A model generated the notes under the pieces. It was not told the origin of the DNA and searched no databases. It worked only from the letters and a program-made list of their open reading frames with translations. Positions 3,001 to 61,247 of a DNA stretch of 64,000 bases are shown piece by piece; position 1 is the first letter of the stretch; the number at the start of each line of letters is the position of its first letter. The stretch covers positions 125,190 to 189,189 of the forward strand of contig JACPGV010000002.1 in NCBI GenBank assembly GCA_016182385.1, in the 5' to 3' direction. Origin of the DNA: Candidatus Moraniibacteriota bacterium (GTDB taxonomy: Bacteria; Patescibacteriota; Minisyncoccia; Moranbacterales; UBA1568). A program made the position numbers and the translations under genes.

Positions 3001-4146
3001 TTGAAGATGACTGTAAATATGAATAAGCATCGACAAAAAAAAATAGCGCTCGTCCATGACTTTCTCGTTTCCTACGGCGGAGCGGAGCGGGTATTTCAGG
3101 TGATGGCGGAGATGTTTCCCGACGCGCCAATCTATACGCTTCTTGCGGACCAGGAGATTGTTACGCGATATTTTCCCGGTCGTGAGGTGCGTGTTTCGTG
3201 GCTTTGTCGTCTGCCGAAATTTCTCAAAAAACGATATCGTTTTTTTCTCCCATTTTTTCCGGCGGCGGTGGAAGCGTTTGATTTGCGTGATTTTGACTTG
3301 GTTCTTTCTTCGTCCGGAGCGTGGGGAAAGGGGATTGTCACGCGTCTTGATACGACACATATCGCTTATCTTCATTCGCCGATGCGATACGCGTGGGATT
3401 ATCACGAACAATATCTCGCTGAGATCGCTTCTCGGTCAGGGAAGAAGAAACCCGGTATATTCACGCGGCTTCTTCTTTCCTACATGCGTTTGTGGGATAG
3501 GCAAGCGGCGGAGCGCCCGGATATTCTTTTGGCAAACTCTCAATACACACAGGCGCGCATAGAAAAATATTATCGTCGGAAAAGTACGGTTCTTTATCCG
3601 CCAGTGACGCTTTCTCGTTCTTTTTCTGCTTTTGCTAAGGAAGTGTCGCGTGGCGATTATTTTCTTTTGGTGTCGCGGTTGACTCGTTCCAAAAAGGTGG
3701 ATGTGGCCATCGAGGCTTTTAACAAACTTGGCATATCTCTCGTGATTGTGGGGAGCGGAAGGGAAGAGAATTGTTTGCGCGAACAGGCGAGAAAGAATAT
3801 TACTTTTATGGGATTTGTTGATGATGAAAAATTGGCCACATTGTATGCCGGGGCGCGCGCGCTTATTTTTCCTTCTGAAGAAGATTTTGGGATGACAGCA
3901 GTAGAAGCGCTTTCTTTTGGTACGCCGGTCATTGCTTTTGATTATGGCGGCGTGAGAGAGATTGTTGAAATCGGAAAAACAGGAGAGACATTTCACGCGC
4001 AAACGCCTGAGGTATTAGCGGAGGGCGTGCGCCGATTTTTACAGCGGGAGGGGACATATGATGAGTCAATGATGAAGCAGAGCGCGAAACGATTTAGTCA
4101 GGAGCGGTTTCAGACAGAACTTGGGAAATTGATTCAAGAATTTTAG
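3001..4146 (+). CDS. glycosyltransferase family 1
   Basis: 381 aa; EDFGMTAVEALSFGTPVIAFDYGGVREIV and FLLVSRLTRSKKVD motifs; N-terminus IALVHDFLVSYGGAERV typical GT-B. Start may be at one of the downstream in-frame Met codons (MTVNMNK). Confidence 0.8.
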   Translation: MKMTVNMNKHRQKKIALVHDFLVSYGGAERVFQVMAEMFPDAPIYTLLADQEIVTRYFPGREVRVSWLCRLPKFLKKRYRFFLPFFPAAVEAFDLRDFDLVLSSSGAWGKGIVTRLDTTHIAYLHSPMRYAWDYHEQYLAEIASRSGKKKPGIFTRLLLSYMRLWDRQAAERPDILLANSQYTQARIEKYYRRKSTVLYPPVTLSRSFSAFAKEVSRGDYFLLVSRLTRSKKVDVAIEAFNKLGISLVIVGSGREENCLREQARKNITFMGFVDDEKLATLYAGARALIFPSEEDFGMTAVEALSFGTPVIAFDYGGVREIVEIGKTGETFHAQTPEVLAEGVRRFLQREGTYDESMMKQSAKRFSQERFQTELGKLIQEF

Positions 4147-4196: not shown

Positions 4197-5090
4197 ATGA
4201 TACATATTATCGGTCATAAAAAAGAACGAGAGCGATTGCGATGGGCAAGAGAGAGGAATTGTGTTGCACAGAGTTATATTTTTTTTGGACCGCAGGGTAT
4301 TGGAAAAAGTTTGTGCGCGTTAGAATTTTCTTGCGCGCTTGTCGGGGAGCCTTTTTTTACGCCGAGTGATGATCAACCGACGCCACTTGATGTTTTGGTG
4401 ATGCGGCCACGAGAGGAAGAAAAGCGTGGCGTCATCAAGGTGAAAAATATTGCCGCGGAAGATGTTCGGGAGGCGCTGCGATTTCTTTCTTGTTATCCGG
4501 CATCTGGAAAATATCGGGTTGTTATTATTGAAGAGGCACACAAGCTTTCCCTTTCGGCTCAAAATGTTCTTTTGAAAACTTTGGAAGAGCCCAATCCGTC
4601 GGCGGTCATTATTTTAGTGACGCATGAAAAAGGAACGCTGGGAGAGACGATTCTTTCGCGAACGCAGAATATGCGTTTTGATTTTGTTTCGGAAGAAGAA
4701 ATGATGGCTACTATTGATCAGAACGGACAAGACATCGCCCCATTCTTTTTTTCTCTTGGCCGGCCGGGAATGATTTTTCGAGCGCTTCATTTTCCTCAGG
4801 AATTTATTCGTGAAAAGGAGGCTTTGACGCGTCTTTTCAAACTTTCTTCACTTCCTCTCGTCGAGCGAATGAAACTTGCTGAAGAATTAGGAAAGAATAT
4901 TCCGCAAGCTGTCCGTCTTTTGGAATGGTGGTTACCTGGTCTTCATGCGCAGGCACTCCGTGATACCGACACGTGGCGGACCGCTCGTTTTTTTGTTCTT
5001 CTTGAGTTAACGGAAACAACTCTTCGTTTACTCAAAACGACTCAAGCGAATGGAAGGCTTCTTTTGGAAAAACTTTTTTTTTCGGTATAA
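4197..5090 (+). CDS. holB: DNA polymerase III delta-prime subunit (clamp-loader AAA+ protein)
   Basis: 297 aa; QSYIFFGPQGIGKSLCALEFSCALVG P-loop-like box, VVIIEEAHKLSLSAQNVLLKTLEEP sensor region, typical HolB architecture. Confidence 0.75.
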   Translation: MIHIIGHKKERERLRWARERNCVAQSYIFFGPQGIGKSLCALEFSCALVGEPFFTPSDDQPTPLDVLVMRPREEEKRGVIKVKNIAAEDVREALRFLSCYPASGKYRVVIIEEAHKLSLSAQNVLLKTLEEPNPSAVIILVTHEKGTLGETILSRTQNMRFDFVSEEEMMATIDQNGQDIAPFFFSLGRPGMIFRALHFPQEFIREKEALTRLFKLSSLPLVERMKLAEELGKNIPQAVRLLEWWLPGLHAQALRDTDTWRTARFFVLLELTETTLRLLKTTQANGRLLLEKLFFSV

Positions 5091-5096: not shown

Positions 5097-6053
5097 ATGT
5101 GGTTTTTTGAAAAAACAACAAGAAAACAATCAGCGGCGCGTTTTTTGCGAAAAGCTCCTTTGGAACGAAAAGAGCGTCGCATCGTTGTAGAGACAAAAAA
5201 GCCTTTTTTCTCTTTGGGGATGGTGGTTCTCTGGGGAGTATTTACGGCAACAGTGATCTATAGCCTTCTTTTTTCTTCTTTTTTGGTTATTACGAAGAAA
5301 ACGACAGATGGCGTTGAAAAATTATCAATTGAAGAAGTGGAGAGGGTCGTCGATGAAGAGCTTTCTGGTAAACAAGGATATGTGTTTTTTAAGAAAAATT
5401 TTATTCTCTTTGATTCACAACGACTGGAAGAACGGTTGATCGCGGAATTCCCACTTATTCGTACGGCACGGGTAGTGAAAACATTTCCTGATACTTTGCG
5501 TATTGTTATTGAAGAGCGAGAGAAAATCTTTTTGTGGTGTTCTCAAGAGCAGTGTTTTGTGATTGATGAACAAGGAAAAGCGCGTGATGGTGAAAAGACA
5601 TCGGATGTTCGTTATGAACCTTTTATTTTATCAGTAACGGATCTGAGTGCTCGGCCGATCACTATTGGCAAGGAAGCGGTAGCCTCTGATTATGTGCGAT
5701 TCGTGCGCGATTTTTTTGTTCTTTTTCCTCAAGAGACGGGTATTTTTTTAGAGTCTCATTGTACGACCAGTTCTCGTTTTGCTGACGAAGTACGCATAAA
5801 AACAAAAGAAGGTTGGAGTGTCTACGTTCGTACCAAAGGTGCCGTTACGGATGCTCTGGCGGTTATTCAGGTTTTATTGGAAAAAGAGTTACCGGCCGAA
5901 AAGCGAGAACGACTGGAATATATTGATGCTCGCGTAGAAAACCGTTTGTATTATGTGCTACGTGATGAAGGGGGCGAAGAAGAAAAGATTATGCCCGAAA
6001 TAGCGGAAACGTCTTCCGAGGAAAAGAGCGCGTCAAAGAAGAAAAAGAAGTAA
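5097..6053 (+). CDS. ftsQ: cell division protein FtsQ/DivIB-like (POTRA domain)
   Basis: 318 aa; single N-terminal TM helix (FFSLGMVVLWGVFTATVIYSLLF) followed by POTRA-like IRTARVVKTFPDTLRIVIEEREKIFLW; lysine-rich tail. Confidence 0.6.
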   Translation: MWFFEKTTRKQSAARFLRKAPLERKERRIVVETKKPFFSLGMVVLWGVFTATVIYSLLFSSFLVITKKTTDGVEKLSIEEVERVVDEELSGKQGYVFFKKNFILFDSQRLEERLIAEFPLIRTARVVKTFPDTLRIVIEEREKIFLWCSQEQCFVIDEQGKARDGEKTSDVRYEPFILSVTDLSARPITIGKEAVASDYVRFVRDFFVLFPQETGIFLESHCTTSSRFADEVRIKTKEGWSVYVRTKGAVTDALAVIQVLLEKELPAEKRERLEYIDARVENRLYYVLRDEGGEEEKIMPEIAETSSEEKSASKKKKK

Positions 6054-6135
6054 CGAAAAATGTAGCAAGAAGCAGGGGGTAAGTAGTAAGAAGAGGGATC
6101 GGTATAAAAAAAGAGGTGGAAGCCTCTTTTTTTAC

Positions 6136-9754: not shown

Positions 9755-12700
9755 ATGCTTGAAAGATTCTTTAGGGGAAATGTTCGTAAAGATGCGACTG
9801 ACGATTCTCCCGGTGGCAGTGGGTCTCCGGAAAAAGAGGGCGCGATCGTTTTGTTGTCCCAGCAACCAGCTTCTTCTCAAGAGTGGCAGAATCAAAAAAA
9901 GAATTTTATTGTTCGCATTAGAGAAGTCGGCAAGAATGGTTTTCGTGTGGTTATTCATGATCGACGTCGAGGCGAAGACACGAGAGAAACGAAAGAAATG
10001 TCTCTTGATGCACTCAAAGCTCTTTTGTTGAGTGAGGGCTGTGCGCTTGTTGAGGCGCCTGTTGTGGCAAAGGTATCTCCGATAGCGCCTTTACCAACAC
10101 AAAAGGAAACCGTTGAGGAATCGCCCAAAAAAGAAAATGGAGAGAAAAACGTTTTGTTTGATCGGTTTTGTGCCATTGATGAAGAAATAAGGAAAAAAAC
10201 GGAAGAGGTAAGCGCTCTGATATCCGCGTTTCAGGGAAAAACCCTCCCGGAAAACGTAACAAACACTTATGAAAAGATATACGCGCGATACAGTGCTTTG
10301 GTTGACGAAAGCGACGCCTTCACGGAAGCAATAAACGCTCAGGATTCTCATACCGTCGATAAAGAAGCAGTAAAGCAACAAGAGAAATATTTACAAGGGT
10401 TTTCTCAGTGTGTGAATGATTTTTCTTCGTTGCGAGAGCAATTGAGCACTCAAGAGGTGCCATCAAGCGTTCCTTTGCCAAAAAAAACAACGGAGGGTGA
10501 TGACAAGATAAAAAGAGAGAAAAAAGAAGAACGTGTCTTGCGGGACTTTGAACAAAAAGTGATGTCTTTGCAAGAAGATTTTCGTCGCTCGATAGAAGAG
10601 GTCTCGGATATGGAAGGCCTTGTGGCGATTGGCACAAAAGAGTCACGGAGACGTATTTTTTTGGATAAGAAAGATCCGCAATGGAACGATGTTGCCAAAA
10701 AACTTTCACGCCCAGGAGCGGTTCAGGCAATGGCATTTCTTGAAGGAGTGAACAAGGAACTTCTTGATAGGTGGAAGAGAAAAAAAGAAGAATTGAAACA
10801 GCAATCGACACCTGTCAAAGAAACAAAAAAAAGAGGGAACCAGGAAGAGCCGGTAGTATCCGTGGTACCACAAGGAAAGGATGTTGTAAGGACAGCGAGC
10901 GTTCCTAAAAGATCAATGAGACGAAGAGGAGGAAAAGGAGGACAGGTGCCATTGGAGGACGCATCACAAGAACAAAATCCGGGAGAAAAGCAAAATGGAG
11001 CGGGAAAGAAGAAAGAGGGAGAAATCAACAAGGAATCAGCTAATGAAGAAGAAAAGACCCTGGCAGAGCTTACGAAGGCAAGGATTCTTTCTAACGAGGA
11101 TTTCATTCGTGGAGGTGCTCAGTATGTAAAAGATGATTCGGCAATCGATGGATTTCGATTGGATGTTACAGAAGAGCAAAAAAAAGCCGCGCAGGCGGAA
11201 ATGGAAAAAGAGCTTGCTGAAAAAGAGAAGCGCACAAAAGAACAAGAAGAACAGATGATGGGAAGTCGAGAGCTTTTTAAAGAGGAGCTTGTAAAAGGTG
11301 GCGCGGGTGTTTTTTATGATGAGAATGGTCAGGCGTTTATTGATCCGACAGCCGAACAAAGAGAAGCCTTGCAAAAAGAAGGCTCTCATCATCCTAGCAA
11401 GGTGGTAAAAAAAGAAGAAGAATTACTAGAGAAAAAGAATGGCGAAGGAGGTGGAGGTGATTTGTCGCCAGAAGAAAGAGAAAAAGGGGGAGAGGAGACA
11501 TTGTATGAGAAAATAGCGCGTCTTACCGAGGAGGTTGATACATTGAGAGAGAAATATATTAAAGAAGATTTTGAGCAAACGACGACGATGAAAAAACTAA
11601 AAAGTTTTTTTCGTTTGTCGGAAAATACGGCGGCACCGGAGCTTTCTTGGAGAAAATTGTATCAAGAAAAAATAAGGGAACTTCAGCGGGCAGAACTGCA
11701 AACGGTAGAAAGTGATACGGAGGATATTCATCGTTCCAAAGAAGATATTCAGGAAGGAAAGGGCCGATTGCTTGAGTATTATAGATTACAGGAGGCGATC
11801 AACGTTATTGACGCGCGTACAAAGTATCGCGCCGAATCAGAAACCTTTTTGGGAAAAGGTAAAGATGTTTTGATGGCGTTGGGAAGAAAATATAATGCTC
11901 TTTCTTTCAAGAAGAAGATGCTTCTTACCGGCGCGTTGACAGTGGGAGCGCTTGCTTCAGGCGGTATCGCTTCCGGTGCTTTGGCCGGAATGTTTATTGG
12001 AGTAAAAAGGGTATTGTCTGGCGCGGCGACAGCCGCCGGAACAGAAGCGTCTTGGGAAAAAATTTCTGAGAAGCGGAAGGCGTCGCAAGCGGAAAAGATA
12101 AAAAGGGAAATAGAAGAAAGGGTAGCGGGCGGAATGAACATGGAAGATTTGCAAAAAACTTTAGCGGAAGATGTTGGGACGGTTGATACAAAATTGCAAA
12201 AAGAGAAACGCGCGAAATCCTTTCGAAGAAGTGCTTCTCTTTTGGCTGGAGTGACGGTTGGTGGCGGAGGACTTTTGGCTGATGCTTTGATGACCGATCA
12301 TGTTTCGGAAGGGGTATCATCAAAGGAAATACTGCCGAAAGAGATGTCGCAAAACGTGATAGAAAAACCCGTTACCTCCTCCACGCCCTCTTTTTCTCTC
12401 GAACAAACGCTTGATGCGCGTGATAAGATGATAGGAGAAACAAGACGAGAGATTATTGACGAATTGGAGAGAGGAAACCAGGGTGTCGCTCAAGAAGCAC
12501 CTTCTTCGTCCTCATCAGTTTCTTCTCTTGAGCCCCTCATACGAGCTCATGAGGAGGTGACTCGTTCAGGAATGATACGGGGAGAGGAGACTCTTTTGGA
12601 AGAAAAACGAAACATCTTGCCGCAAACATCTGATGTGGCGGTAGAAACGAAAACATCTTTTGTAGAACAGACGCCTCGATTGCAAGCGCGCGCCGACAAT

Positions 12701-13036
12701 TGGTTCCAGCAGATTTTTCAGAGCGAGTACGTTTCTCCCGGGCAAGATGCTTTTTTTGATCGGCAAAAAATCGGCGGGACGAAACTTCTGGATATGATGC
12801 GTGATGCAAGATTGTACCGAGAAGGGTCTTTTTCTGGATATACCACAGGACTCAATGCTGAACAGATCAAAAGTTTCGCGGAGTTTTCCAAGAATACGGA
12901 AACGATAATTGGTCATCCTGCGATGAAAGAACTGTTACGCGCTCATCCCAATGCGACTATTGATGACTTTTTGAGGTCGGTGGCGCCACTTGTTCCTCGT
13001 GGGAAGCGGTTGGGACTTTTTACGACGGCAGTGTAA
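9755..13036 (+). CDS. giant hypothetical protein (1093 aa), E/K-rich coiled-coil with internal Gly/Ala-rich hydrophobic segments
   Basis: Long uninterrupted ORF, strongly charged low-complexity sequence (EEKK repeats), two hydrophobic G/A-rich stretches (LLTGALTVGALASGGIASGALAGMFIGV; LLAGVTVGGGGLLADAL) and a C-terminal approx 200 aa globular region. No recognisable enzymatic motif. Confidence 0.55.
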   Translation: MLERFFRGNVRKDATDDSPGGSGSPEKEGAIVLLSQQPASSQEWQNQKKNFIVRIREVGKNGFRVVIHDRRRGEDTRETKEMSLDALKALLLSEGCALVEAPVVAKVSPIAPLPTQKETVEESPKKENGEKNVLFDRFCAIDEEIRKKTEEVSALISAFQGKTLPENVTNTYEKIYARYSALVDESDAFTEAINAQDSHTVDKEAVKQQEKYLQGFSQCVNDFSSLREQLSTQEVPSSVPLPKKTTEGDDKIKREKKEERVLRDFEQKVMSLQEDFRRSIEEVSDMEGLVAIGTKESRRRIFLDKKDPQWNDVAKKLSRPGAVQAMAFLEGVNKELLDRWKRKKEELKQQSTPVKETKKRGNQEEPVVSVVPQGKDVVRTASVPKRSMRRRGGKGGQVPLEDASQEQNPGEKQNGAGKKKEGEINKESANEEEKTLAELTKARILSNEDFIRGGAQYVKDDSAIDGFRLDVTEEQKKAAQAEMEKELAEKEKRTKEQEEQMMGSRELFKEELVKGGAGVFYDENGQAFIDPTAEQREALQKEGSHHPSKVVKKEEELLEKKNGEGGGGDLSPEEREKGGEETLYEKIARLTEEVDTLREKYIKEDFEQTTTMKKLKSFFRLSENTAAPELSWRKLYQEKIRELQRAELQTVESDTEDIHRSKEDIQEGKGRLLEYYRLQEAINVIDARTKYRAESETFLGKGKDVLMALGRKYNALSFKKKMLLTGALTVGALASGGIASGALAGMFIGVKRVLSGAATAAGTEASWEKISEKRKASQAEKIKREIEERVAGGMNMEDLQKTLAEDVGTVDTKLQKEKRAKSFRRSASLLAGVTVGGGGLLADALMTDHVSEGVSSKEILPKEMSQNVIEKPVTSSTPSFSLEQTLDARDKMIGETRREIIDELERGNQGVAQEAPSSSSSVSSLEPLIRAHEEVTRSGMIRGEETLLEEKRNILPQTSDVAVETKTSFVEQTPRLQARADNWFQQIFQSEYVSPGQDAFFDRQKIGGTKLLDMMRDARLYREGSFSGYTTGLNAEQIKSFAEFSKNTETIIGHPAMKELLRAHPNATIDDFLRSVAPLVPRGKRLGLFTTAV

Positions 13037-13054
13037 TCTTTAACGTCTCTCTTT

Positions 13055-13363
13055 ATGGCACTTAATGAAAAAACATTGGAAAAAGATTTGATTGCAACAT
13101 TTCATCTGGAAGAATTACCCAAGGAAAAACAGCAGGCTCTGCTCGCTCGTATCGGTGAGGCTTTGTTGAGACGCGTTTTTTTGGAAACAATGGAAAAATT
13201 GGATACGGAAGACGTTGTTTTGTATGAGCGTTTGGTGAAAGAAAATGCGTCGCAAGAGCAAATGGAGACGTTTCTCGAGAATAAGATTCCGGGGTATAAT
13301 GTCTTTGTTCGTGGGGTGGTCGCGAAGTTTACCGAGGAAATGAAACGAGCGACGGCTCAGTGA
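13055..13363 (+). CDS. hypothetical protein (102 aa)
   Basis: ORF tightly spaced after the giant protein; helical, no known motif. Confidence 0.45.
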   Translation: MALNEKTLEKDLIATFHLEELPKEKQQALLARIGEALLRRVFLETMEKLDTEDVVLYERLVKENASQEQMETFLENKIPGYNVFVRGVVAKFTEEMKRATAQ

Positions 13364-13399
13364 GCGGAGAATTATTGATAATGAGTAACATGAGCATTT

Positions 13400-13828
13400 A
13401 TGGTTGAAGAAATTATTGGTGGAGAAAATGAGACGTTTTCGGAGAATCCAGAAAAGAATCCGAGAGAAGATATAATAGGAGGAGAGGTGATGTCGATACC
13501 AGAACAGGAACCTTCTTCTGAGGGCGCAAGTGAACAAGTAGAAACGAAGCTTGATACGCTACTTGCCAAACAATCTTCTTCTAGTGTGTCGGGGAGCACT
13601 CATGATGACGGCGTGGTCGCGATGGATGCCAAAAGTGTCGACGTGATGACCGATGAGGAGAGTAAGATACAGATGCTTTTGGATTTGGCGAGTACGAAGG
13701 GCGTGGTGCATGCCGTGAAGGTGGCGCGTAAGTTGAATGATTATTACGCTTTGGATTGCATGCATGATGAGCTTGTAGATAAGTTCTATGATGGTCTTTT
13801 GGAGCGGGGATTGATAGAAAAAGAATAG
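13400..13828 (+). CDS. hypothetical acidic protein (142 aa)
   Basis: ORF directly upstream of the ATPase gene, same strand, acidic composition. Confidence 0.45.
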   Translation: MVEEIIGGENETFSENPEKNPREDIIGGEVMSIPEQEPSSEGASEQVETKLDTLLAKQSSSSVSGSTHDDGVVAMDAKSVDVMTDEESKIQMLLDLASTKGVVHAVKVARKLNDYYALDCMHDELVDKFYDGLLERGLIEKE

Positions 13829-13870
13829 AGGACCACAGGGAGGGGTCATATAAAAACAAAAGAGCGTATT

Positions 13871-16360
13871 ATGGAGGGCTTTGATTTGAATATTTTTTTG
13901 GTGCCATTGACATCGTTACTGGCTTTGATAGCTCTTATAAGCGGTGCATTTTTGGTGGCCCGCAGTTTTTTTCGTTTTCGTTATCAAATCAATCAATCCA
14001 TGAATATGGATCTTGAGGTGATACGAGTAACGCATAAAGAAGTGCCTGAGGGACAGTCCCGCGAACAAAGCGCTGAAGCATGGAAAGAGGAAATTTTTGC
14101 TATGGAACGACTACTTTCTTCTTTGGCCGTACTCAAACCAAAGGGGGGTATGTGGAAAAGTTTGTTTTTTGATACTCCGACTATTATTTTTGAAATAGCC
14201 AATCCTTCTTCGAGCGAAGAAATTTCTTTTTATTTAAGTTTGCCGAAACGTTTTCGAGAAAGCGCGGAAAAACAAATTCATAGTTTTTTTCCGCAAGCCG
14301 TTATTGAAAAGATACCGGACTACACCATTTTTTCTCCGCAGAGCTTCACAGCCTTATCGGTGCTTACGCTCAAGTACAGTCACGCGCTTCCTTTGCGAAC
14401 CTATCGTATGGTTGACGTTGATCCTTTGAATGAGATTTCTAATGCGTTGAGTAAATTGAACACCATTGAGGAGGGTGCCGCCATTCAGTTGGTGTTGACG
14501 CGCGTTGGTTCGGGCTGGCGTAAAAAGGGGAAAGCCATCGCTCAAAAAATGCAGGAGGGAAAACGCTTGAAGGACGCCCAGTCTTCTTCTGTTGCTAAAG
14601 AATTGGCAGCAGAAATGGGTAAAGGGATGGTGGGGGCCTTGGCCGGAAGAAAAAAAGAATCTCTTCCTGAAGAAAAAAAGGTAGTAGCGCTTACACCGGA
14701 GGAACAAGAATTGTTGAAGTCGATTGATGAAAAAACAAACAAAAATGCTTTTCGGGTTAATATTCGTCTCATCGCTTCGGCAACTACGGAAGAACGAGCG
14801 GAGGAGATTCTTTCTCACATGGAAAATGCTTTTGGCCAATTTGAAAATCCAGAAGTAAATATGTTTCGCGTGAAGCATCGTAGTAAAAACAAACGTTCCG
14901 TGTATGATTATATTTTTCGTAATTTTGATGATGATGTTGAGATGACACTTACGGTTGATGAAATCGCCAGTATTTTTCATTTTCCCATTTCTACGACAAA
15001 AACACCGAAAATAAAATGGCTGAAAGCCGGAGCCGCGCCACCGCCGGTCAATATTCCAAATGAAGGAGCGTTGCTTGGTTTTAACGATTATCGTGGAACG
15101 AAAACCGATATCCGTATCACGGATAATGATCGTCGTCGGCATATGTACGTGATCGGACAAACCGGTGTCGGTAAATCGAATTATTTGCAAGAAATGGCGA
15201 AAAAAGATGCCAAATCCGGCAGAGGATTTTGTTTTATCGATCCTCATGGTGATGCCATTGAAGATATTTTGACAGCCATTCCCAAAGAGCGTGCCGAAGA
15301 TGTTATTGTATTTGATCCCGCGGATATTGGTCGCCCGATCGGTATCAATATGCTGGAATATGATCCGGAACATCCCGAGCAAAAAACATTCGTTATCAAT
15401 GAAATGATTGGTATTTTCGATCAATTGTATGATTTGAAAGCGACTGGTGGTCCGATGTTTGAACAATACATGAGAAATGCCATGCTCCTTATTATGGAAG
15501 ATCCGGAAAGTGGTTCGACACTTTTGGAAATATCGAAAGTGCTCGCTGATGAAGATTTTCGTCGTTATAAGCTTGAAAAATGTTCCAATCCTATAGTGCG
15601 CGATTTTTGGATTAAGGAGGCGGAAAAGGCTGGGGGAGAGGCGGCACTTGCCAATATGGTGCCGTACATTACATCCAAGTTAACAGCTTTTATCAGTAAT
15701 GATATGATGCGGCCGATCATTGCCCAACAAAAAAGCACGATTGATTTTCGAGAGATTATGGATGGTGGAAAGATTTTGCTCATCAATCTTTCCAAGGGAA
15801 AAATCGGAGAAATTAATGCCCGATTGCTTGGTATGGTTGTGGTAGGGAAGATTTTAATGGCGGCGCTTTCCCGTGTCAATACACCGGAAAATGAGCGACG
15901 CGATTTTTATCTTTATCTGGACGAGTTCCAAAACGTTACAACCACGTCTATTGCTCAAATTCTTTCAGAAGCCCGCAAATATCGTCTCGTTCTTATTTTG
16001 GCACACCAGTTTATCGGACAATTGAAAGAAGAAATATCAAAAGCGGTTTTTGGCAATGTTGGCTCTCTGGTGTCATTCCGCGTTGGACCGGAAGACGCGG
16101 AGTTTCTTGAAAAACAATTCGCCCCTGTTTTTACCGCGAGCGATATCATGAATGTCGATAATTACAATTGTTTTGTGCGACTTCTTATGAATAATGAGTT
16201 GACCAAGCCATTCAATATGAAGACATATCCGCCAACCCTTGGAAATCAAGAAATAGCGAACGCGCTGAAAGAACTTTCTCGTTTGCGTTATGGTCGTGAT
16301 GCCGCGATTGTAAACCGGGAAATCATGAGTCGTATCAAGTTGACCGAACGATTGCAATGA
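13871..16360 (+). CDS. membrane-anchored VirB4/VirD4(TraG)-family type IV secretion/conjugation ATPase
   Basis: 829 aa; N-terminal TM helix; Walker A VIGQTGVGKSNYL followed by FIDPHGD (DPKGE-like box of TraG/VirD4/VirB4), Walker B FYLYLDEFQNV, and ILAHQFIGQL (conserved Q..QL box of coupling proteins). Confidence 0.7.
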   Translation: MEGFDLNIFLVPLTSLLALIALISGAFLVARSFFRFRYQINQSMNMDLEVIRVTHKEVPEGQSREQSAEAWKEEIFAMERLLSSLAVLKPKGGMWKSLFFDTPTIIFEIANPSSSEEISFYLSLPKRFRESAEKQIHSFFPQAVIEKIPDYTIFSPQSFTALSVLTLKYSHALPLRTYRMVDVDPLNEISNALSKLNTIEEGAAIQLVLTRVGSGWRKKGKAIAQKMQEGKRLKDAQSSSVAKELAAEMGKGMVGALAGRKKESLPEEKKVVALTPEEQELLKSIDEKTNKNAFRVNIRLIASATTEERAEEILSHMENAFGQFENPEVNMFRVKHRSKNKRSVYDYIFRNFDDDVEMTLTVDEIASIFHFPISTTKTPKIKWLKAGAAPPPVNIPNEGALLGFNDYRGTKTDIRITDNDRRRHMYVIGQTGVGKSNYLQEMAKKDAKSGRGFCFIDPHGDAIEDILTAIPKERAEDVIVFDPADIGRPIGINMLEYDPEHPEQKTFVINEMIGIFDQLYDLKATGGPMFEQYMRNAMLLIMEDPESGSTLLEISKVLADEDFRRYKLEKCSNPIVRDFWIKEAEKAGGEAALANMVPYITSKLTAFISNDMMRPIIAQQKSTIDFREIMDGGKILLINLSKGKIGEINARLLGMVVVGKILMAALSRVNTPENERRDFYLYLDEFQNVTTTSIAQILSEARKYRLVLILAHQFIGQLKEEISKAVFGNVGSLVSFRVGPEDAEFLEKQFAPVFTASDIMNVDNYNCFVRLLMNNELTKPFNMKTYPPTLGNQEIANALKELSRLRYGRDAAIVNREIMSRIKLTERLQ

Positions 16361-16464
16361 GAGGAGCGGAACTGTTTTGGCCGAAGGAGAGACATTGATA
16401 ATTTTTTGTAGCAAAAAACACGCTAAGGAGAGAGGCGTGTTTTTTTGAAATGTAAAGAAGGATT

Positions 16465-18927
16465 TTATTCCTGAATCTCAATTTTAAAGGAGAGAAGGGT
16501 ATGATTGGTCATAATGAAGAGTTCGTTGTTTTTTTCGTTGACGACAAAAGAGAGGGCATCAGGAATTTTTTCTAATGAATACCGACGGAAGAGGGTTCCA
16601 TCTTGGCGGAAAATATAAAACATTTTCTGTGAAGCATCGAGAGCGTAGATATGCGTGAGATCTGGCGCGGTAAAGAGGGTCGTGAGAGTAAAAGGGGTGT
16701 CCGGTAAAGAAAACCGTGTGACGAGACGTCCCCGGAAAAAAGAAGAAAGGGTATTATCGGGACAAGAAAGAAAGAGTGTTTCGTGAATGGCGAATGTCGC
16801 GTTGTCTTCACAGGAAGTCTTTTCTTTGAGCCAAAAAGAGGCAGTGCCGAAACCGCCCGTAGCTCGTGGAAAGCGATAGATCTGATCGTGCGCGCTATCG
16901 AGGGCGTAAAGATACGTGAGGTATGTTCCGATGCTTTGAATATCAGCCCCTTCAGGGATATCCAGGTTGTTTTTGGTAAAGGCGTGAGTGATGGAGCTGA
17001 AAGAATAAAGTTCTTTTTTTGTGGTATAGAGGAAAATGAGACTCAGATCGTCCATAGCTGTCGCGAGACGGATAGTTCCGTTTTCTCTTGGAAAGGAATA
17101 TGTTTTTTGCTCACGGAGACTGAAAACAGTATTTTCGCCGATACCGTAAACTTCGTTATCGAGGAGGACTATTTTAATGAAAGGCGCTTCTTGAGTGGCG
17201 AGAGTGGAACCGTTTTCCAGGGAAGGAAATTTTTTATTATTTAGAGAAGAAAGAGATTCTATAGTTTCTTCATTTTCTAGAATTGTGTTCGGTGTTTCTT
17301 TTGTTGTTGCGGGACGTGTTGTCAGGAAAAAAAGAGTAAGAGAGAGAAGGGAAAGGAAGATCACTACAGAAAAAAATATTTTTTTCTGTAGTGGTGAGAG
17401 GGCGATATAACGAAGAGAAAGCGTTCGAAAGAGAACGCGTAAATGAAAAAGGAGCTTGTTTGAGACGTTTCCCAATTTGCGCCGAGCGATAGCGAGAGAA
17501 AGGAGAAGCTGGTTGGATATGCCGGGAGTTATTTTTTTCTGGTTATTTTTTTGATAGAAGGAGGCTATTTTTTCTTTGAGAAAATCAGGCGTTTCTGGAA
17601 TTGTTGCGGGATCAATCATTGTTACGGAATCAGTCGGAGAGAAAGAAGGTTCTTCGGATATTTTTTCGATTATTGAAGAATCTTTCTTGAGATGACGGAG
17701 AAAAGAGGTTGTTTTGACTTTCTCTTGTGCTACAAGAATGTTTTTTTGCCATTTTTTCTTCAAAAAACGTCCTGTGTTGCGTGAAACGAGAAAGAGTTTT
17801 TCCGTTCCTTGATAAAGAGAGAGTGAACCCTGTTTGCCTACTTTGCGAAAAAATCTTTTTTGTCCGGCAAAAAAATCATTAAACGCGTGAAGAATATTTT
17901 GAAAAAAGAGTGACAACCGCTCGATTGACGGATGTGATGCCGAAGAATCAGGAGTGTTCCCGTGCACATAAATATGTCCGGTTTTTGAATCAATATAATC
18001 CTTTGGTAAGGGGTCTTTTTCTTCTGGAGCGTTTTCCGCTGTTGCGATAGATGTAGGGGATTTTTCAATAAAAGTAGCGTTACTGAAGGCATTCATTACT
18101 GAAGCGTCTTGACGCGTTTCGGAAGAGTGTTTTTTGGGGGATTCTTGAATAATTTTTTCCTCGCAATCGATGATAAAAATACCGCTTCTATCAAGCTCGT
18201 TGGTAATGGCTGTACGTAAAAATTGAGCAAATTGCTCTTTATTCATGCGAGCGACTTGTTTTTCTAGAAGATCGAGAGGAAGTAGGGAGAGGGGTTCGGG
18301 AGAAGTAAAAATAATCTTATCTTCCGGCAAAAGTCTCCCACTCGAAACCTCGACGAAAGTTTTTATGGGGTGTGAAGAGGATTCTTCTGACGCAAGGCCA
18401 ACGCTTATTTCCGAGAGGGTGCCATTACGTGATAATAAAATAGTCCCTTGGCCGGTAACGGAAAAATGAATATTGTTTTTTTCGATTATTCCGAGAGTCC
18501 CGTGAAGTTTTCCAAGCCAAGAAATGTTTCCGTGTTTGACAAGCTCGGCCAGGGCGAGATTTATTTTATGGAGGGCGGCTTCGAAACTTTCGATGGCGCC
18601 GCGACGGGGGTTATTGAAATATTCTTTGCGAGCGACTGAGGAAAGGAAATTGACGATATACGCGGCATCTTCACTTTTTTCGGTTATTTCAAAAATTCCT
18701 ATGAGCGTACCTAAAGACGCGGCGACGACGTTTTCTCCGCTATAATGGAACGTTTTGATAAAAGGTTCATAGGAGCGATTGCCGACGACGAGAATTTCGG
18801 TAATCTCTTTTTCGATCTCTGTGAGAACCTTTGGTTTTTCTTGGCGTTTTTTCTCCGACATAACACGGGCAAAACAAGTCAAAACAATAGAAAGAGATTT
18901 TTCTTCAAACCTCTCACAGTATACCAT
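16465..18927 (-). CDS. hypothetical bitopic membrane protein (820 aa) with C-terminal repeat (beta-propeller-like) domain
   Basis: Long ORF, central TM helix (IFFSVVIFLSLLSLTLFFLTT), C-terminal repeats of the type IYALDSA/IYRF, FYIFRQDG; convergent with the ATPase gene. Confidence 0.5.
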   Translation of the reverse strand: MVYCERFEEKSLSIVLTCFARVMSEKKRQEKPKVLTEIEKEITEILVVGNRSYEPFIKTFHYSGENVVAASLGTLIGIFEITEKSEDAAYIVNFLSSVARKEYFNNPRRGAIESFEAALHKINLALAELVKHGNISWLGKLHGTLGIIEKNNIHFSVTGQGTILLSRNGTLSEISVGLASEESSSHPIKTFVEVSSGRLLPEDKIIFTSPEPLSLLPLDLLEKQVARMNKEQFAQFLRTAITNELDRSGIFIIDCEEKIIQESPKKHSSETRQDASVMNAFSNATFIEKSPTSIATAENAPEEKDPLPKDYIDSKTGHIYVHGNTPDSSASHPSIERLSLFFQNILHAFNDFFAGQKRFFRKVGKQGSLSLYQGTEKLFLVSRNTGRFLKKKWQKNILVAQEKVKTTSFLRHLKKDSSIIEKISEEPSFSPTDSVTMIDPATIPETPDFLKEKIASFYQKNNQKKITPGISNQLLLSLAIARRKLGNVSNKLLFHLRVLFRTLSLRYIALSPLQKKIFFSVVIFLSLLSLTLFFLTTRPATTKETPNTILENEETIESLSSLNNKKFPSLENGSTLATQEAPFIKIVLLDNEVYGIGENTVFSLREQKTYSFPRENGTIRLATAMDDLSLIFLYTTKKELYSFSSITHAFTKNNLDIPEGADIQSIGTYLTYLYALDSAHDQIYRFPRATGGFGTASFWLKEKTSCEDNATFAIHETLFLSCPDNTLSSFFRGRLVTRFSLPDTPFTLTTLFTAPDLTHIYALDASQKMFYIFRQDGTLFRRYSLEKIPDALSFVVNEKNNELFIMTNHTLLSFKIEIQE

Positions 18928-29566: not shown

Positions 29567-29650
29567 GGGTAGGTGGCGGAGTGGTCAATCGCAGCAGACT
29601 GTAAATCTGTCGTCCTTCGGACTTCGGGGGTTCGAATCCCTCCCTGCCCA
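29567..29650 (+). tRNA. tRNA-Tyr (anticodon GTA), long variable arm
   Basis: Acceptor GGGTAGG/CCTGCCC, anticodon loop ACTGTAAAT, long variable arm, T-arm GGGGGTTCGAATCCCTC; 29 nt after tRNA-Thr. Confidence 0.85.
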
Positions 29651-29699
29651 CGAGAATAAACTATAAAAGCACCCAGTAATGGGTGCTTTTATAGTTTTG

Positions 29700-29853
29700 T
29701 TTTGAGGAGAGAGGGATGCGAACGGACAGGAACGAGTAGCGAGCGAAGGCGAGCTAAATGAGTGTCGACGGATGCGCGTGAGCAAGCATTCGTCGTTGCC
29801 CCGGGCAACGAAGTCGTCAGCAGACGACGAGGCGGAAATCCCTCCCTGCCCAC
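29700..29853 (+). repeat. tRNA-linked structured repeat element, unit 1 (core GAGTAGCGAGCGAAGGCGAGCTAAATGAGTGTCGACGGATG...; ends with copy of tRNA-Tyr 3' end GAAATCCCTCCCTGCCCAC)
   Basis: Follows a hairpin terminator (29661-29692). 5' part is degenerate antisense of the T-arm (AGGGATGCGAACGG). Core is shared with the 61248-61391 copy. Confidence 0.7.
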
Positions 29854-29898
29854 AAAAAGCAAAATCCCGTGCCATCAAGACACGGGATTTTGCTTTTT

Positions 29899-29976
29899 GG
29901 GTAGGAGGAAGCCAACTGCTTGGCTTCCGAGAGGGGTGAGAATCTTTACCCGCCTTTGGCGGGCCTCCCTACCCAC
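29899..29976 (+). repeat. tRNA-like hairpin element, unit 2 of tandem (GGGTAGG...CCTACCCAC closing stem mimicking the tRNA-Tyr acceptor)
   Basis: Preceded by its own hairpin terminator (29854-29897). Perfect 7-bp terminal stem GGGTAGG/CCTACCC, internal hairpins GAAGCCAA-CTGC-TTGGCTTC and CCCGCC-TTTG-GGCGGG. Ends ...CCTCCCTACCCAC, resembling the tRNA-Tyr 3' end. Confidence 0.55.
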
Positions 29977-30851: not shown

Positions 30852-30924
30852 GCCGTTGTAGCTCAGCTGGTAGAGCACCACCATGGTAAGGTGGGGGTCA
30901 CCGGTTCAATCCCGGTCAACGGCT
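30852..30924 (+). tRNA. tRNA-Thr (anticodon GGT)
   Basis: Acceptor GCCGTTG/CAACGGC, anticodon loop ATGGTAA, T-arm GGTTCAATCC. Confidence 0.85.
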
Positions 30925-30949
30925 CAGAAATGACTTCAAGTCTGGTTTT

Positions 30950-31093
30950 TTGGAAGGTAAGAAAAAGCGGAGAAGGGGATTGAACGGGGAAGGGGTCGGG
31001 AAACGGGAGTTTCCTGTTCGGGGTGACAGCGCATCGCCAGAGGGCGGAAGCCCTATGGAGAGCGAAGCGAGTGAAATCCGAGTCAACGGCTCA
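30950..31093 (+). repeat. tRNA-linked structured repeat element (contains GGGGATTGAACGGGG antisense T-arm piece and GAGAGCGAAGCGAG core; ends with GAAATCCGAGTCAACGGCTCA, a copy of the tRNA-Thr 3' end)
   Basis: Direct comparison with the tRNA-Thr(GGT) 3' end (AATCCCGGTCAACGGCTCA). GC-rich, no coding potential; ORF 30950-31198 in the track is a spurious translation of this element. Confidence 0.65.
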
Positions 31094-31477: not shown

Positions 31478-31549
31478 GGCCCCATCGTCTATCGGCTAGG
31501 ACATCAGGTTCTCATCCTGAAAAGAGGGGTTCGATTCCCCTTGGGGCTA
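31478..31549 (+). tRNA. tRNA-Glu (anticodon CTC)
   Basis: Acceptor GGCCCCA/TGGGGCT, anticodon stem TCAGG/CCTGA with loop TTCTCAT, T-arm AGGGGTTCGATTCCCCT. Confidence 0.8.
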
Positions 31550-31703
31550 CAGATTAACCAAAACCTCCAGGAATCATCATGGAGGTTTTGGTTTATGTAT
31601 CTAGGGGGAATCGAAGGGCGCGAGTAGAATCTGAGCGAGCGAGGATTCTGTGTGTAGCGCCCAGGCTCCGAGTCGGAGCGAGGAGGATTCCCCTTGGGGC
31701 TAC
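31550..31703 (+). repeat. tRNA-linked structured repeat element (bidirectional terminator hairpin AAAACCTCCA-GGAATCATCA-TGGAGGTTTT; antisense T-arm piece GGGGGAATCGAAGG; core GAGTAGAATCTGAGCGAGCGAGGATTCTG; ends with GGATTCCCCTTGGGGCTAC, a copy of the tRNA-Glu 3' end)
   Basis: Near-identical second copy at 61046-61199 behind tRNA-Glu(TTC); the hairpin loop is reverse-complemented between the copies. Confidence 0.75.
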
Positions 31704-31830
31704 AGGTATTAATAAAAATCACCCTTCTTTTTAGAGGGAGTGATTTTTATTGGGATTTTTCGTACTGACTTGACAGGAGCAGATAATTTTCCTATAAAGC
31801 TATTTCAGCACTTTAATAGGAGGAAGTGTC

Positions 31831-42310: not shown

Positions 42311-43809
<1,499 letters not shown>

Positions 43810-44278: not shown

Positions 44279-45346
44279 ATGCCAAAAATTACCAGCAATA
44301 AACTAAACGAACGGCAAAACGTTATATTAGTTTTTATCGAAGACAGTAAATCTGTTTCAATTGGACAGATTTTTGAGCATATCCAAAATGGTTTTGAGAA
44401 GATTACGAGGATAACTGTTTCAAGAGATTTGGAAAAATTGCTAAACATCAATTTAATTGAAAAACAAGGAAAATCAAAAAGAACTATCGTTTATCGGATT
44501 TCGTCCCAGTATTCGATGCTGAAAAAAATTGATGTTGAAAAATATTTTGCTCAAGATGTTGACCAACGAAAAATCAGAGAAACTTTTAACTTTGATATTT
44601 TTAGTCAATTGAAAGATATTTTCACTGAGACTGAAAAAAACAGACTCTCAGAGCTGAATGATATTTACCGAGATAAGATAAAGGACATTGCACCAGATGC
44701 TTTTAGAAAGGAAATTGAGAGACTAAATATCGATTTTAGCTGGAAGTCTTCCAAGATTGAGGGTAATACTTACAGTTTGCTAGAAACCGAACAGCTTATC
44801 AAAAACCAGCAAGAAGCCTCAGGTCATACCAAGGAGGAGGCCGTGATGATTTTGAATCACAAGAAGACTCTGGACTATATTGGAAATAATAAAAAGGATT
44901 TCCAATTGGTATCTGTTGCTAAGATTGAAAATGTCCATTCTTTTCTGGTAGATGGTTTGAACGTGACCAAAAATTTGAGAAAAAGTTTGGTAGGAATAAC
45001 TGGCACGAATTACAAGCCATTGGATAATGAATTCCAAATCAGAGAGGCTTTAGAAAAGACTTGTCAAACAGTCAATGAAACAAAAAACGTTTTTGAAAAA
45101 GCGGTGATTTTGATGTTGCTTATCGCATATATCCAGCCGTTTGTTGATGGCAATAAAAGAACGAGTCGTTTAAGTGGCAATGCCGTTTTGCAATCGTTTG
45201 ATTCCTGTCCGCTTTCGTATCGCAGTATGGACGAAATTGAATACAAAAAGGCGATTTTACTATTCTATGAGCAGAATAATATCTCATACTTCAAGGAATT
45301 GTTCTTGAAGCAGTTTGAGTTTGCTGTGGAAAATTACTTCGGATGA
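44279..45346 (+). CDS. HTH-Fic/DOC family protein with degenerate Fic motif (QPFVDGNKRTSR instead of HPFx[DE]GNGRxxR)
   Basis: 355 aa; N-terminal wHTH (ITRITVSRDLEKLLNINLIEK), central Fic core ...AVILMLLIAYIQPFVDGNKRTSRLSGNAVL; coding GC is much lower (about 33-35%) than surrounding genes. Confidence 0.75.
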   Translation: MPKITSNKLNERQNVILVFIEDSKSVSIGQIFEHIQNGFEKITRITVSRDLEKLLNINLIEKQGKSKRTIVYRISSQYSMLKKIDVEKYFAQDVDQRKIRETFNFDIFSQLKDIFTETEKNRLSELNDIYRDKIKDIAPDAFRKEIERLNIDFSWKSSKIEGNTYSLLETEQLIKNQQEASGHTKEEAVMILNHKKTLDYIGNNKKDFQLVSVAKIENVHSFLVDGLNVTKNLRKSLVGITGTNYKPLDNEFQIREALEKTCQTVNETKNVFEKAVILMLLIAYIQPFVDGNKRTSRLSGNAVLQSFDSCPLSYRSMDEIEYKKAILLFYEQNNISYFKELFLKQFEFAVENYFG

Positions 45347-49899: not shown

Positions 49900-49998
49900 A
49901 AACGAAATTGCGAATTCCGTTTTGAGTCAAAAACACAATACGCGCGAGCCGCCGAGCGAAGCGAGGCGACTTCTGAATCCTTGACTTTTCCAACGCGG
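49900..49998 (-). repeat. tRNA-Arg-adjacent GC-rich element carrying the shared motif CCGAGCGAAGCGAGG (plus-strand orientation)
   Basis: Immediately 3' of tRNA-Arg(TCG) on its strand; contains GAGCGAAGCGAG as in the other tRNA-linked elements; ORF 49601-49984 in the track is a spurious translation. Confidence 0.45.
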
Positions 49999-58700: not shown

Positions 58701-58949
58701 ATCTCCCTTCATCCGATGGTAGCGGACGATCGTATCCTCAATGGCGAGCATCGCGGCATGGCCGGCATGAAGCGTGCCGGTGACATTCGGCGGGGGAAGG
58801 ACGATCGAAAAAGTCGGTTTCGTTTCGTCAGTGATATTTTTTTTGATGCAGATATCGGGATTGAAGAGACCGCTTTCTTCCCATTTGGAATAAAGCTCGT
58901 TTTCCCACTCCTTGGCATCGTATGTTTTCGGAATATTGTTTTCATTCAT
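55749..58949 (-). CDS. valS: valyl-tRNA synthetase with an inserted histidine-phosphatase (PGAM-like) domain
   Basis: 1066 aa; class I motifs PPPNVTGTLHAGHA (HIGH) and KMSKSLGN; WCISRQIWFGHRIPVWYC and DPDTLDTWFSSGLW anchors; C-terminal coiled coil. Between the CxxC pairs (LSCKKE ... CEYCGHH) lies a domain of about 190 aa with FVRHGETDWN, SSHLSRAHETAKII, ITSHGAVLRAL. Confidence 0.9.
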   Translation of the reverse strand: MNENNIPKTYDAKEWENELYSKWEESGLFNPDICIKKNITDETKPTFSIVLPPPNVTGTLHAGHAAMLAIEDTIVRYHRMKGDRTLWIPGTDHAAVATQSKVENILWKEEQKTRFDLGREEFLKRIETFAQQSHDTIVHQTKKMGASLDWSREAYTLDEKRSLSVRTAFKKMYDDGLIYRGYRVVNWTIKGQSTCSDDEVVTIERQAKLYTFRYSKNFPIAIATTRPETKLGDTAIAVHPDDERYKKYIGQTFTADVGSAKPLAIKIIADESVDPAFGTGAVGVTPAHSHADFEMRERHPEIDLIQVIDTDGTMTAEAGQDYAHLTTLEAREKFVLWLRENDLIEKEEDITQNVGTSDRYEDVLEIIPMRQWFVAVNKEFDHSGKKTTLKQLMREAVGPGKITLLPERFSKTYFHWIDNLRDWCISRQIWFGHRIPVWYCLSCKKERINATVKSRWFFVRHGETDWNKKEINAGTTDIPLNETGREQARLTAEKLAAENIGVIFSSHLSRAHETAKIIGKKIGVDEIIIDDRLQERNMGKAEGLSYSETKKRFPDLQKYNGKSANNESYEEAENRIWKAVSEHLEKHSHKNVLITSHGAVLRALWRKIQGVTPESIMNIKRFPNATPLSIDILKPCEYCGHHFFEQDPDTLDTWFSSGLWTFSTLGWPDENAVDFKNYHPTSLLETGYDILFFWVARMILMTEYLLDTHPFDTIYLHGLVRDEQGRKMSKSLGNVIDPLTVSEKYGADALRMALISGSTPGNDLRLSDEKIVMMRNFTNKLWNLARYVGTMTEKTNTPPEPKTDADQYLIKKLHAIVRDITRHLERYELSLAAEELREFTWGDFADWYVEVHKVEKNDALLRYAFDKILKLWHPFMPFVTEAIHQTFHFDTNEFLMIAKWPEFDTTKLEIATENRFELVKGLISTIRNVRAAYHIDPAQKMTVSAFGESEQTLRGNEEIFKRLARIDKLQTLKSAVAPKNTLRVQYGLLSAFLHLDGVVDIAKERARFTKEKDEKEKYIATLEAKLSNKNFIERAKKEIIETKHGKLKESQKQLLDIKNHLASLQN

Positions 58950-60973: not shown

Positions 60974-61045
60974 GGCCCCATCGTCTATCGGTTAGGACAT
61001 CAGGTTTTCATCCTGAAAAGAGGGGTTCGATTCCCCTTGGGGCTA
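60974..61045 (+). tRNA. tRNA-Glu (anticodon TTC)
   Basis: Same scaffold as tRNA-Glu(CTC) at 31478 but D-loop TCGGTTAGG and anticodon loop TTTTCAT. Confidence 0.8.
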
Positions 61046-61199: not shown

Positions 61200-61247
61200 C
61201 AATTGAAACAAACATCTACTCTTTCAGGAGCAGATGTTTGTTTTTGT

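Follow-up and report, generated by a model that had tools for sequence, protein, structure and literature searches.

The window analysed here, 64 kb of DNA from Candidatus Moraniibacteriota bacterium, contains ten tRNA genes according to ARAGORN, in agreement with the Rfam model RF00005, and its gene neighbourhood is a housekeeping one (prfA, rpmE, rpsB, tsf, a tRNA cluster, rpmG and ribosomal-protein genes). Its elongation factor Ts is identical to an NCBI protein assigned to a Candidatus Moranbacteria MAG. Directly behind four of the tRNA genes lie six small structured units, and the same architecture is present in about 20 related Moranbacteria assemblies. A prediction made earlier from the letters of the window only had already given the ten tRNAs with their coordinates, which were confirmed, and had proposed a structured family tied to tRNA 3' ends, with which about 25 related loci agree. 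One scan of a genome collection led to one true relative, L006, and one metagenome scan to two, L028 and L029; further relatives were added via look-ups of Ts and L33 homologues. The resulting comparison set comprises ~25 loci from ~20 distinct Moranbacteria assemblies with the cluster Thr(TGT)-Tyr ... Thr(GGT)-rpmG-Trp-Glu. Arms and layout were compared for 30 classified units from the window and the related loci, and in all 30 the order is linker, left arm, structured core and right arm. In the window, profile searches matched the known unit copies only, none of them away from a tRNA. Behind tRNA-Tyr the following features were assigned:

29567 to 29651, plus strand: tRNA-Tyr(GTA), of which the last 17 nt (29635-29651) are the attachment/identity segment
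29652 to 29706, plus strand: linker of unit A, with an intrinsic-terminator-like hairpin (29658-29697) and a T-run
29707 to 29723, plus strand: left arm of unit A, GAGAGAGGGATGCGAAC, purine-rich, a degenerate reverse complement of the tRNA-Tyr T-loop, T-stem and acceptor 3' strand
29724 to 29835, plus strand: core of unit A, type A, GC-rich, with conserved junctions
29836 to 29853, plus strand: right arm of unit A, a sense copy of the tRNA-Tyr 3' end, 17 nt of it exact (29837-29853)
29854 to 29898, plus strand: terminator hairpin, which is the linker of the second tRNA-Tyr unit
29899 to 29976, plus strand: second tRNA-Tyr unit, type III, internally shortened

The core of unit A is organised by a long-range helix, GGGCAG/CUGCCC, and three hairpins, P2 (GC-GAAG-GC), P3 (GUCGACGGAUGC...) and P4 (CGUC-AGCA-GACG). 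For its right arm an exact sense copy of 19 nt had been announced, which had to be corrected to 17 nt, AATCCCTCCCTGCCCAC. The arm of L006 that is orthologous to the degenerate left arm of unit A is a 16-nt exact match. In the second unit the left arm GGGTAGGAGG (29899-29908) is followed by the hairpin AAGCCAACTGCTTGGCTT at 29909-29926 and a remnant core, and the right arm CCTCCCTACCCAC (29964-29976) bears the A69 variant of tRNA-Tyr known from other genomes. The remaining four units are found behind tRNA-Thr and the two tRNA-Glu genes:

30852 to 30925, plus strand: tRNA-Thr(GGT)
30926 to 31093, plus strand: unit D, type D, with linker (30926-30974), left arm GGGGATTGAAC (30975-30985) and four-hairpin core
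31478 to 31550, plus strand: tRNA-Glu(CTC)
31551 to 31705, plus strand: unit C, type C1, with linker hairpin (31556-31593), left arm (31601-31615), two-hairpin core and right arm (31685-31705)
60974 to 61046, plus strand: tRNA-Glu(TTC)
61047 to 61200, plus strand: unit C', type C1, identical to unit C from arm through core to arm, with linker hairpin (61052-61089)
61201 to 61391, plus strand: unit B, with a type A core, in tandem behind unit C', with linker hairpin (61206-61243), left arm AGAAAAATCGAAC (61253-61265) and right arm GGAATTTTTCTTGGGGTTAC (61372-61391)
61401 to 61433, plus strand: terminator-like hairpin closing the tRNA-Glu(TTC) array

The right arm of unit D (31075-31093) has two mismatches to tRNA-Thr(GGT), and the native tRNA-Glu terminator (31714-31748) comes only after unit C. 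Unit B, with its type A core, is 76% identical to unit A, and its arms stay paired through four adjacent double changes (GGGG/CCCC to AAAA/TTTT). The same layout as behind tRNA-Tyr, which the original prediction had seen at tRNA-Thr(GGT), tRNA-Glu(CTC) and tRNA-Glu(TTC) and in a further tandem unit, was found at all of these places, for the tandem unit at 61253-61391. A sixth locus proposed next to tRNA-Arg(TCG), at 49900-49998, has neither arm and no match to a core profile and is not a member. A peculiarity was observed in the linkers of units C (31556-31593) and C' (61052-61089), as their hairpin stems are identical and their loops are mutual reverse complements (AGGAATCATCAT vs ATGATGATTCCT). 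Such loop flipping in linker terminators also occurs between the window (29658-29697) and L006 (3425-3462) and between two terminator copies of L028.

Over the whole data set the units measure 120-250 nt, contain no open reading frames (ORFs) and follow a uniform plan. The linker of ~50 nt starts directly 3' of the tRNA and in most units carries an intrinsic-terminator-like hairpin with T-run. The left arm reads antisense to the tRNA, from the T-loop into the 3' strand of the acceptor stem, with exact complementarity over up to 18 nt (GGCAGGGAGGGATTCGAA, L036). The core takes up 80-110 nt, and the right arm repeats the final 12-20 nt of the tRNA in sense orientation, in L028 up to 55 nt including the terminator; the direct repeats of the tRNA 3' end measure 12-55 nt. 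In most cases another terminator lies 3' of the right arm, and from arm to arm more than 30 units span ~100-160 nt. Occupied sites are confined to the final tRNA of each co-oriented run, and the orientation of a unit is always that of its tRNA.

That the left arm is antisense to the tRNA is evident behind tRNA-Tyr, where it has the sequence complementary to the 3' strands (GGGCAGG, GAGGG) and does not copy the 5' strands (GGGTAGG, GGGGG). When the best ungapped antisense match to the 3' end of the cognate tRNA was scored for the 30 units, the median was 11 and the maximum 18, and as both non-cognate tRNAs of the same locus and shuffled units reached 6, the match is beyond chance. In L036 the two arms form an exact inverted repeat of 18 nt. 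Furthermore, the arms track local variants of the tRNA-Glu T-loop: a tRNA with TCCGACT is accompanied by arms AGTCGGAC and GTCCGAC (L047), TTCGACT by GGGGAGTCGAA and GGACTCCCC (L050) and TTCGATT by GGGAATCGAAC and GTTCGATCCCC (L035). In the right arm the outer part is often local and the inner part that of the element type, with L040 and L052 as exceptions to local matching. The helix between the arms has the sequence of T-stem plus acceptor and keeps N73; as the left arm of types A, C and D usually ends 1-4 nt before the acceptor end, the last 1-4 acceptor pairs are usually missing in these types. A core-less relic was noticed in L006 (~4440-4480) after the native tRNA-Glu terminator, with sequences resembling a left and a right arm directly joined (CAGGGGAATCC|TTCTCTCTAGCAAGGCTACA).

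Folding free energies of the units were below those of shuffled controls (z about -2 to -6; mean -3.9), and the folds are maintained in evolution. For type C1 (four sequences) 95% of the pair cells hold standard pairs, compared to 38-54% with slid partners, and 12 pairs have changed on both sides, a number matched by at most 1 of 500 shuffles. Type A (seven sequences) gave 94% versus 32-47% and ten such pairs, which none of 500 shuffles matched. The hairpin of C1 occurs as CUCCGAG/CGAGGAG, CUCCGCG/CGCGGAG, CUUUUCG/CGAAAAG and CUUUUUG/CAAAAAG, P4 of type A as GUCGUC..GACGAC or GCGGUC..GACCGC, and the four hairpins of type D are fixed in position while differing in sequence and length. The cores contain GNRA-type loops (GGAA, GGGA, GUGA, GCGA, GCAA) and tandem G.A pairs, and the unpaired junctions are conserved. 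A comparison of the window with L006 gave 93% identity for unit A and 92% for tRNA-Tyr, compared to 72% for tsf DNA and 56% for the Thr-Tyr spacer. Behind tRNA-Thr of three genomes the linkers of the D units have no evident similarity when read side by side, and arm, core and arm are conserved; the arm-arm stem is maintained across tRNA identities. Selection therefore acts on a single-stranded fold that includes the arm-arm stem. This bears out the earlier conclusion, drawn from compensatory changes in two copies of the window, that structure is selected and not decaying, since such changes recur in independent copies. The relatives show conserved structure with covarying helices in C1 and A, and no cloverleaf was found in the units.

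The cores themselves belong to at least five unrelated types, each of which occurs behind several tRNAs, with further copies beyond those counted here:

Core A: four units behind tRNA-Tyr, two behind tRNA-Glu, one behind tRNA-Trp
Core C1: three units behind tRNA-Glu, two behind tRNA-Tyr
Core C2: three units behind tRNA-Glu, one behind tRNA-Tyr
Core D: four units behind tRNA-Glu, three behind tRNA-Thr, two behind tRNA-Tyr
Core III: at least five units behind tRNA-Tyr, two behind tRNA-Glu

Cores of any type may stand between the arms of various tRNAs (Tyr, Glu, Thr or Trp), in free combination. The core motif (GAGTAG..GAGCGA..) that the original prediction had taken as shared is accordingly not family-wide, and GAGCGAAGCGAG in the Thr unit turned out to be a small variable hairpin, in whose place the orthologues carry other hairpins. 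C2 cores hold a terminator-like succession of A-tract, hairpin and T-tract. In L017 the A-cores behind tRNA-Tyr and tRNA-Glu are 91% identical to each other and 83-85% to the Tyr copies of other genomes. Together with the chimeric right arm at tRNA-Tyr (GGAATTCCC|TCCCTGCCC), this indicates transfer within the genome with exchange of arms.

Three comparisons of filled with empty or of swapped sites show clean insertions bounded by the tRNA 3' end; a polymorphism of this kind had been suggested as a check and was found at the Thr and Glu sites (filled versus empty) and between L035 and L036 (swapped). At tRNA-Thr(GGT) the rpmG promoter region directly abuts the tRNA in L006, where the entire stretch of unit D is missing, and in the window that flank comes after the distal tRNA-end copy (53/69 identical; linker versus flank 36/75). 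At tRNA-Glu(CTC) of L006 the native terminator directly adjoins the tRNA; in the window it adjoins the right arm instead. The two near-identical loci L035 and L036, which come from different samples, agree at 99.3% of positions in the 7.6 kb upstream and at 100% in the 694 nt downstream and differ only in the segment directly 3' of tRNA-Tyr (263 nt vs 244 nt), one holding a type III unit and the other a C1 unit with a type III remnant. Tandem arrays of two or three units were found, all in tRNA orientation and some with truncated members. In L046 an MFS transporter gene (1255-2409) lies between tRNA-Glu and a degenerate copy of the tRNA-Glu 3' end and is followed by an A-type unit (2583-2730), indicating that protein-coding cargo between tRNA-end repeats is possible. 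On a larger scale, an inversion of the block Thr(GGT)-rpmG-Trp-Glu against Thr(TGT)-Tyr, with end-points in unit arrays, makes the Tyr and Glu arrays converge in L035-L037, L044, L048 and L050-L053. Contigs break off within or next to units or the tRNA cluster in L018, L030, L036, L038, L039, L042, L043 and L049, consistent with repeat-induced assembly breaks. Inversions and contig breaks would both be expected as side effects of a repeat family.

Campbell-like insertion at the tRNA 3' end, tandem accretion and decay, recent exchange between strains and swapping of cores between tRNAs are therefore established for the units. What they are is less certain, and we lean, with somewhat less than even confidence, to miniature gene-less cassettes that recombine into the 3' ends of tRNA genes. 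The insert reaches from the base after the tRNA via linker, left arm and core to the second copy of the tRNA 3' end, after which the native flank resumes, and this layout would be the expected result of a Campbell-type insertion of a circle of ~150-250 nt with the order right arm, linker, left arm, core. In the single-stranded state the left arm would pair with the right arm; the resulting hairpin stem, with the core as its cap, would restore the duplex of the tRNA 3' end. By analogy to integron attC and to the attP(+) hairpin of CTX phage, such a folded, target-mimicking stem may be the substrate of recombination, on which a recombinase encoded elsewhere in the genome could act, and the terminator brought by the element would keep the restored tRNA gene or transcription unit functional.

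Several results weigh against this cassette interpretation. No integrase, transposase, recombinase, HUH or reverse-transcriptase domain was found in the 40 window ORFs scanned, and no gene for such an enzyme appears in the gene tables of the related loci, so that the search for a nearby recombinase, as originally suggested, was negative. We obtained no evidence of a free circular form, and five core motifs led to no viral contig with a core in IMG/VR, giving chance coding matches or none. The cassette model does not account for the way in which a left arm comes to fit a new tRNA, and folding-strand tests decide neither on the strand nor on the chemistry of the fold. The conserved unpaired nucleotides, GNRA-type loops and tandem G.A pairs fit a functional RNA, and the conservation of the cores exceeds what a recombination hairpin needs, because attC sites lack sequence conservation (PMC4792948). 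Conservation of unit A at the level of a tRNA would also be expected from purifying selection in situ.

These last points lead to the main alternative, possible but less probable, that the units encode small structured RNAs which are cut from tRNA read-through transcripts. The arm-arm helix would then mimic the stack of tRNA T-stem and acceptor with the discriminator base kept, and RNase P, RNase Z, the CCA-adding enzyme or RNase III would release a discrete RNA of ~100-160 nt and stabilise it; the genomic dynamics would be secondary, units being gained and lost when the direct tRNA-end copies recombine. Besides the loops, G.A pairs and junctions just mentioned, such an RNA would account for the covariation in C1 and A, the fixed hairpin positions of type D, the tRNA-like conservation of unit A and the unrelated linkers next to conserved arms and cores in the D units at tRNA-Thr, as well as for the fixed orientation to the tRNA and the terminators after the right arms. 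Transcription from the tRNA is difficult to reconcile with the strong terminators that separate most units from it, and the linkers contain no sigma-70-like promoter; C2 cores even have a terminator-like hairpin inside. The replacement of unrelated cores at one tRNA, also in near-identical strains, would be odd for a host RNA of defined role, and the minihelix mimic is imperfect, as the left arms of A, C and D usually fall short of the acceptor end. Although folding is energetically more favourable on the sense strand for 31 of 33 units, the z-scores of both strands are equal. The excess of G.U pairs (39 vs 8) resides mostly in helices predicted only on the sense strand and shrinks to 10 vs 5 in helices predicted on both, and mismatches in the closing stem are mostly A.C, a comparison confounded by the purine-rich composition. 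No targets in trans complementary to conserved core motifs were detected in the window. Both explanations are compatible, since a mobile cassette could carry an RNA gene. The original prediction had offered miniature integrative elements and a tRNA-trailer RNA as candidates; the evidence from the related loci agrees with these, and the choice between the two is undecided.

Two more conventional origins are far less probable. That the units are relics of ordinary integrated elements such as prophages or islands with tRNA attB sites, in which attR and an element arm were left after loss of cargo and integrase, is very unlikely, although such elements typically show directly repeated tRNA 3' ends, accretion in tandem and remnants, and one array does contain a cargo gene. 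More than 30 units of uniform compact size with complete arms and core do not look like random deletion end-points, their cores show compensatory evolution and tRNA-level conservation, an inverted target copy like the left arm is not a feature of attR, and no integrase remnants lie nearby. Next to no weight can be given to decayed tRNA pseudogenes or functionless local partial duplications. The right arm is indeed a tRNA fragment, and the second tRNA-Tyr unit opens with GGGTAGG, matching the tRNA 5' end, but neither ARAGORN nor the Rfam tRNA model, even at E<=10, recognised a unit as tRNA, only the ten true tRNAs being found; the left arm corresponds to the 3' strand in reverse complement and does not copy the 5' strands, and identical core types with conserved, covarying structure stand behind different tRNAs.

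Searches for a known equivalent agreed with the original statement that the class is undescribed. Rfam 15 gave no match over the units at gathering score and only chance-level hairpin matches at E<=10, and literature searches revealed no description of such elements. Reverse transcription primed by the tRNA, with the left arm as primer-binding site, was considered and rejected as the arm does not cover the tRNA 3' terminus, and so was a trans-splicing or group I ribozyme, as the cores are too small, have no Rfam match and are of five unrelated types.

Among known systems the units share single features with five kinds and lack at least one defining feature of every kind for which a test was possible. 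Integrons are defined by attC sites bounded by R'' and R' (RYYYAAC ... GTTRRRY) and by an attI site next to the integrase gene intI. At the outer ends of the units the tRNA acceptor sequence stands in place of R'' and R', with GAAC/GTTC-like motifs at the inner ends, and the units attach at several tRNA 3' ends instead of attI and have no integron integrase nearby. Like the units, integron cassettes are gene-less or carry a single gene and are stacked one way at one attachment point, and a cassette is ended by an imperfect palindrome of ~60-140 nt in which structure outweighs sequence (PMC4792948); a conserved palindromic structure was also found in the units. Unlike in attC, the stem sequence of a unit is that of the target, and the capped cores are conserved in sequence. 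A common principle may lie in the recombination of attC as a folded single strand and in the CTX attP(+) hairpin, which 'mimics a ds-DNA molecule', two inverted target-like sites ~90-110 nt apart folding into a mimic of the duplex target (PMC4792948). Here, the complementary arms, of which the right one is the tRNA 3' end, are comparable; the targets are the 3' ends of tRNA-Tyr, Glu, Thr and Trp instead of dif, and one core serves several targets. The right junction of integrated CTX consists of inverted site, spacer and direct site, matching left arm, core and right arm, and CTX integration is irreversible, gives tandem arrays and uses the host recombinase XerCD. Between the unit junctions, in contrast, there is only the ~50-nt linker, without phage genes and without IMG/VR matches.

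Integrative elements of tRNA genes (tycheposons and cis-mobilizable att-flanked elements) resemble the units in their partial-tRNA direct repeats, stacking, remnants and element-supplied tRNA 3' end, and partial-tRNA repeats with successive integrations at one tRNA have been described (bioRxiv 10.1101/2020.12.28.424599). The arrangement typical of tyrosine integrases, in which the tRNA 3' end is directly repeated on both sides of the insert and the distal copy is followed by the native flank, was found at Thr(GGT) and Glu(CTC) in the window versus L006. Such elements are kilobases long, carry or once carried an integrase and have neither inverted target copy nor covarying core, unlike the units, which have no integrase gene. 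REP/REPIN-RAYT and IS200/IS605 derivatives are likewise small, extragenic, hairpin-rich and mosaic and often follow terminators, and an IS200/IS605-type layout would be compatible with inserts that start right after the target and end with a target copy. The left arm, which could pair with either of the flanking tRNA-end copies, recalls the guide carried by IS608, through which target and cleavage sites are recognised by base pairing. These guides have ~4 nt and the targets 4-5 nt, however, neither being tied to tRNA genes, and the 64-kb window has no Y1 transposase gene. In contrast to a miniature inverted-repeat transposable element derived from a DDE transposon, the unit arms vary with the tRNA while the core is constant, and the repeat length is not fixed. 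Finally, tRNA-like elements (mascRNA, plant mitochondrial t-elements, minihelices) have a helix of T-stem and acceptor, the discriminator base and a transcript that also holds a true tRNA. The units differ from them by the absence of D arm, anticodon arm and intact T-loop; their 5' strand is a literal antisense copy, and the core replaces the T-loop. We filed the units under cassettes recombined at a fixed attachment site. Their combination of target-matched inverted and direct arms, interchangeable conserved cores and the lack of a linked enzyme was not found in the Rfam and literature searches.

A further and in our opinion unlikely proposal is that the left arm acts as a programmable guide, an antisense segment of 10-18 nt that would pick the target by pairing with the tRNA 3' end or with the copy at its own end, with a logic comparable to that of IS608 guides or IS110 bridge RNAs. 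If true, a structured core and an unlinked enzyme could be retargeted to any tRNA by changing the arms, and nucleic-acid-guided insertion, via single-stranded DNA or an element RNA, would extend to non-autonomous cassettes of ~150 nt in a reduced genome of the candidate phyla radiation. If the units are mobile, they would represent a target-matched insertion system in which a single module is re-addressed to four or more tRNA genes, within ~1-Mb genomes that have few other mobile elements, and they would raise the question how an inverted target copy arises and persists. If the product is an RNA, they would constitute a new set of structured RNAs, specific to the lineage and built on a borrowed tRNA top half. 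In practical terms, the units coincide with contig ends at tRNA loci of Moranbacteria metagenome assemblies, accompany local inversions and may be mistaken for partial tRNAs.

Some further observations concern the tRNA genes and their surroundings. Next to tRNA genes of several genomes proteins of 180-216 aa are encoded that combine an N-terminal helix-turn-helix (HTH) with a conserved C-terminal domain (LLYWGEGTK, NADPEM, IRYSD). The family is absent from the window, and Pfam, NCBIfam, PHROGs and PDB sequence searches recognised only the HTH; a homing-endonuclease-like fold is our unverified guess. Its members are:

L052, 4238-4888
L014, 12906-13556
L046, 365-991
L017, 11818-12360
L038, 7390-8001
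L051, 4891-5499

In L040-L043 (L040 ~3353-3660), L051 (~4640-4880) and L052-L055 (L052 ~5720-6060) the anticodon loop of tRNA-Tyr is interrupted by ~230 inserted nt, because of which ARAGORN misses the gene. Group I introns in tRNA genes of Patescibacteria have been described (PMC13011429); for this insertion Rfam gave no group I match at gathering score. The four occupied tRNA sites of the window are all on the plus strand and the two unoccupied terminal tRNAs, His and Arg(TCG), on the minus strand, numbers which are too small to judge, and the GC skew is positive over the whole window (1-64000). A gene for a TraG/VirD4-like ATPase (13871-16360) lies between two ORFs, of 1093 aa and 820 aa, that have no Pfam match (window 9755-18927). 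Behind a complete 16S rRNA gene there is no 23S gene but a Fic-domain gene, in a stretch of 33% GC compared to ~44% in the rest of the window (window 42311-43807, 44279-45346). The valyl-tRNA synthetase gene on the minus strand (55749-58949) encodes a histidine-phosphatase domain (His_Phos_1) inserted at residues 457-625.

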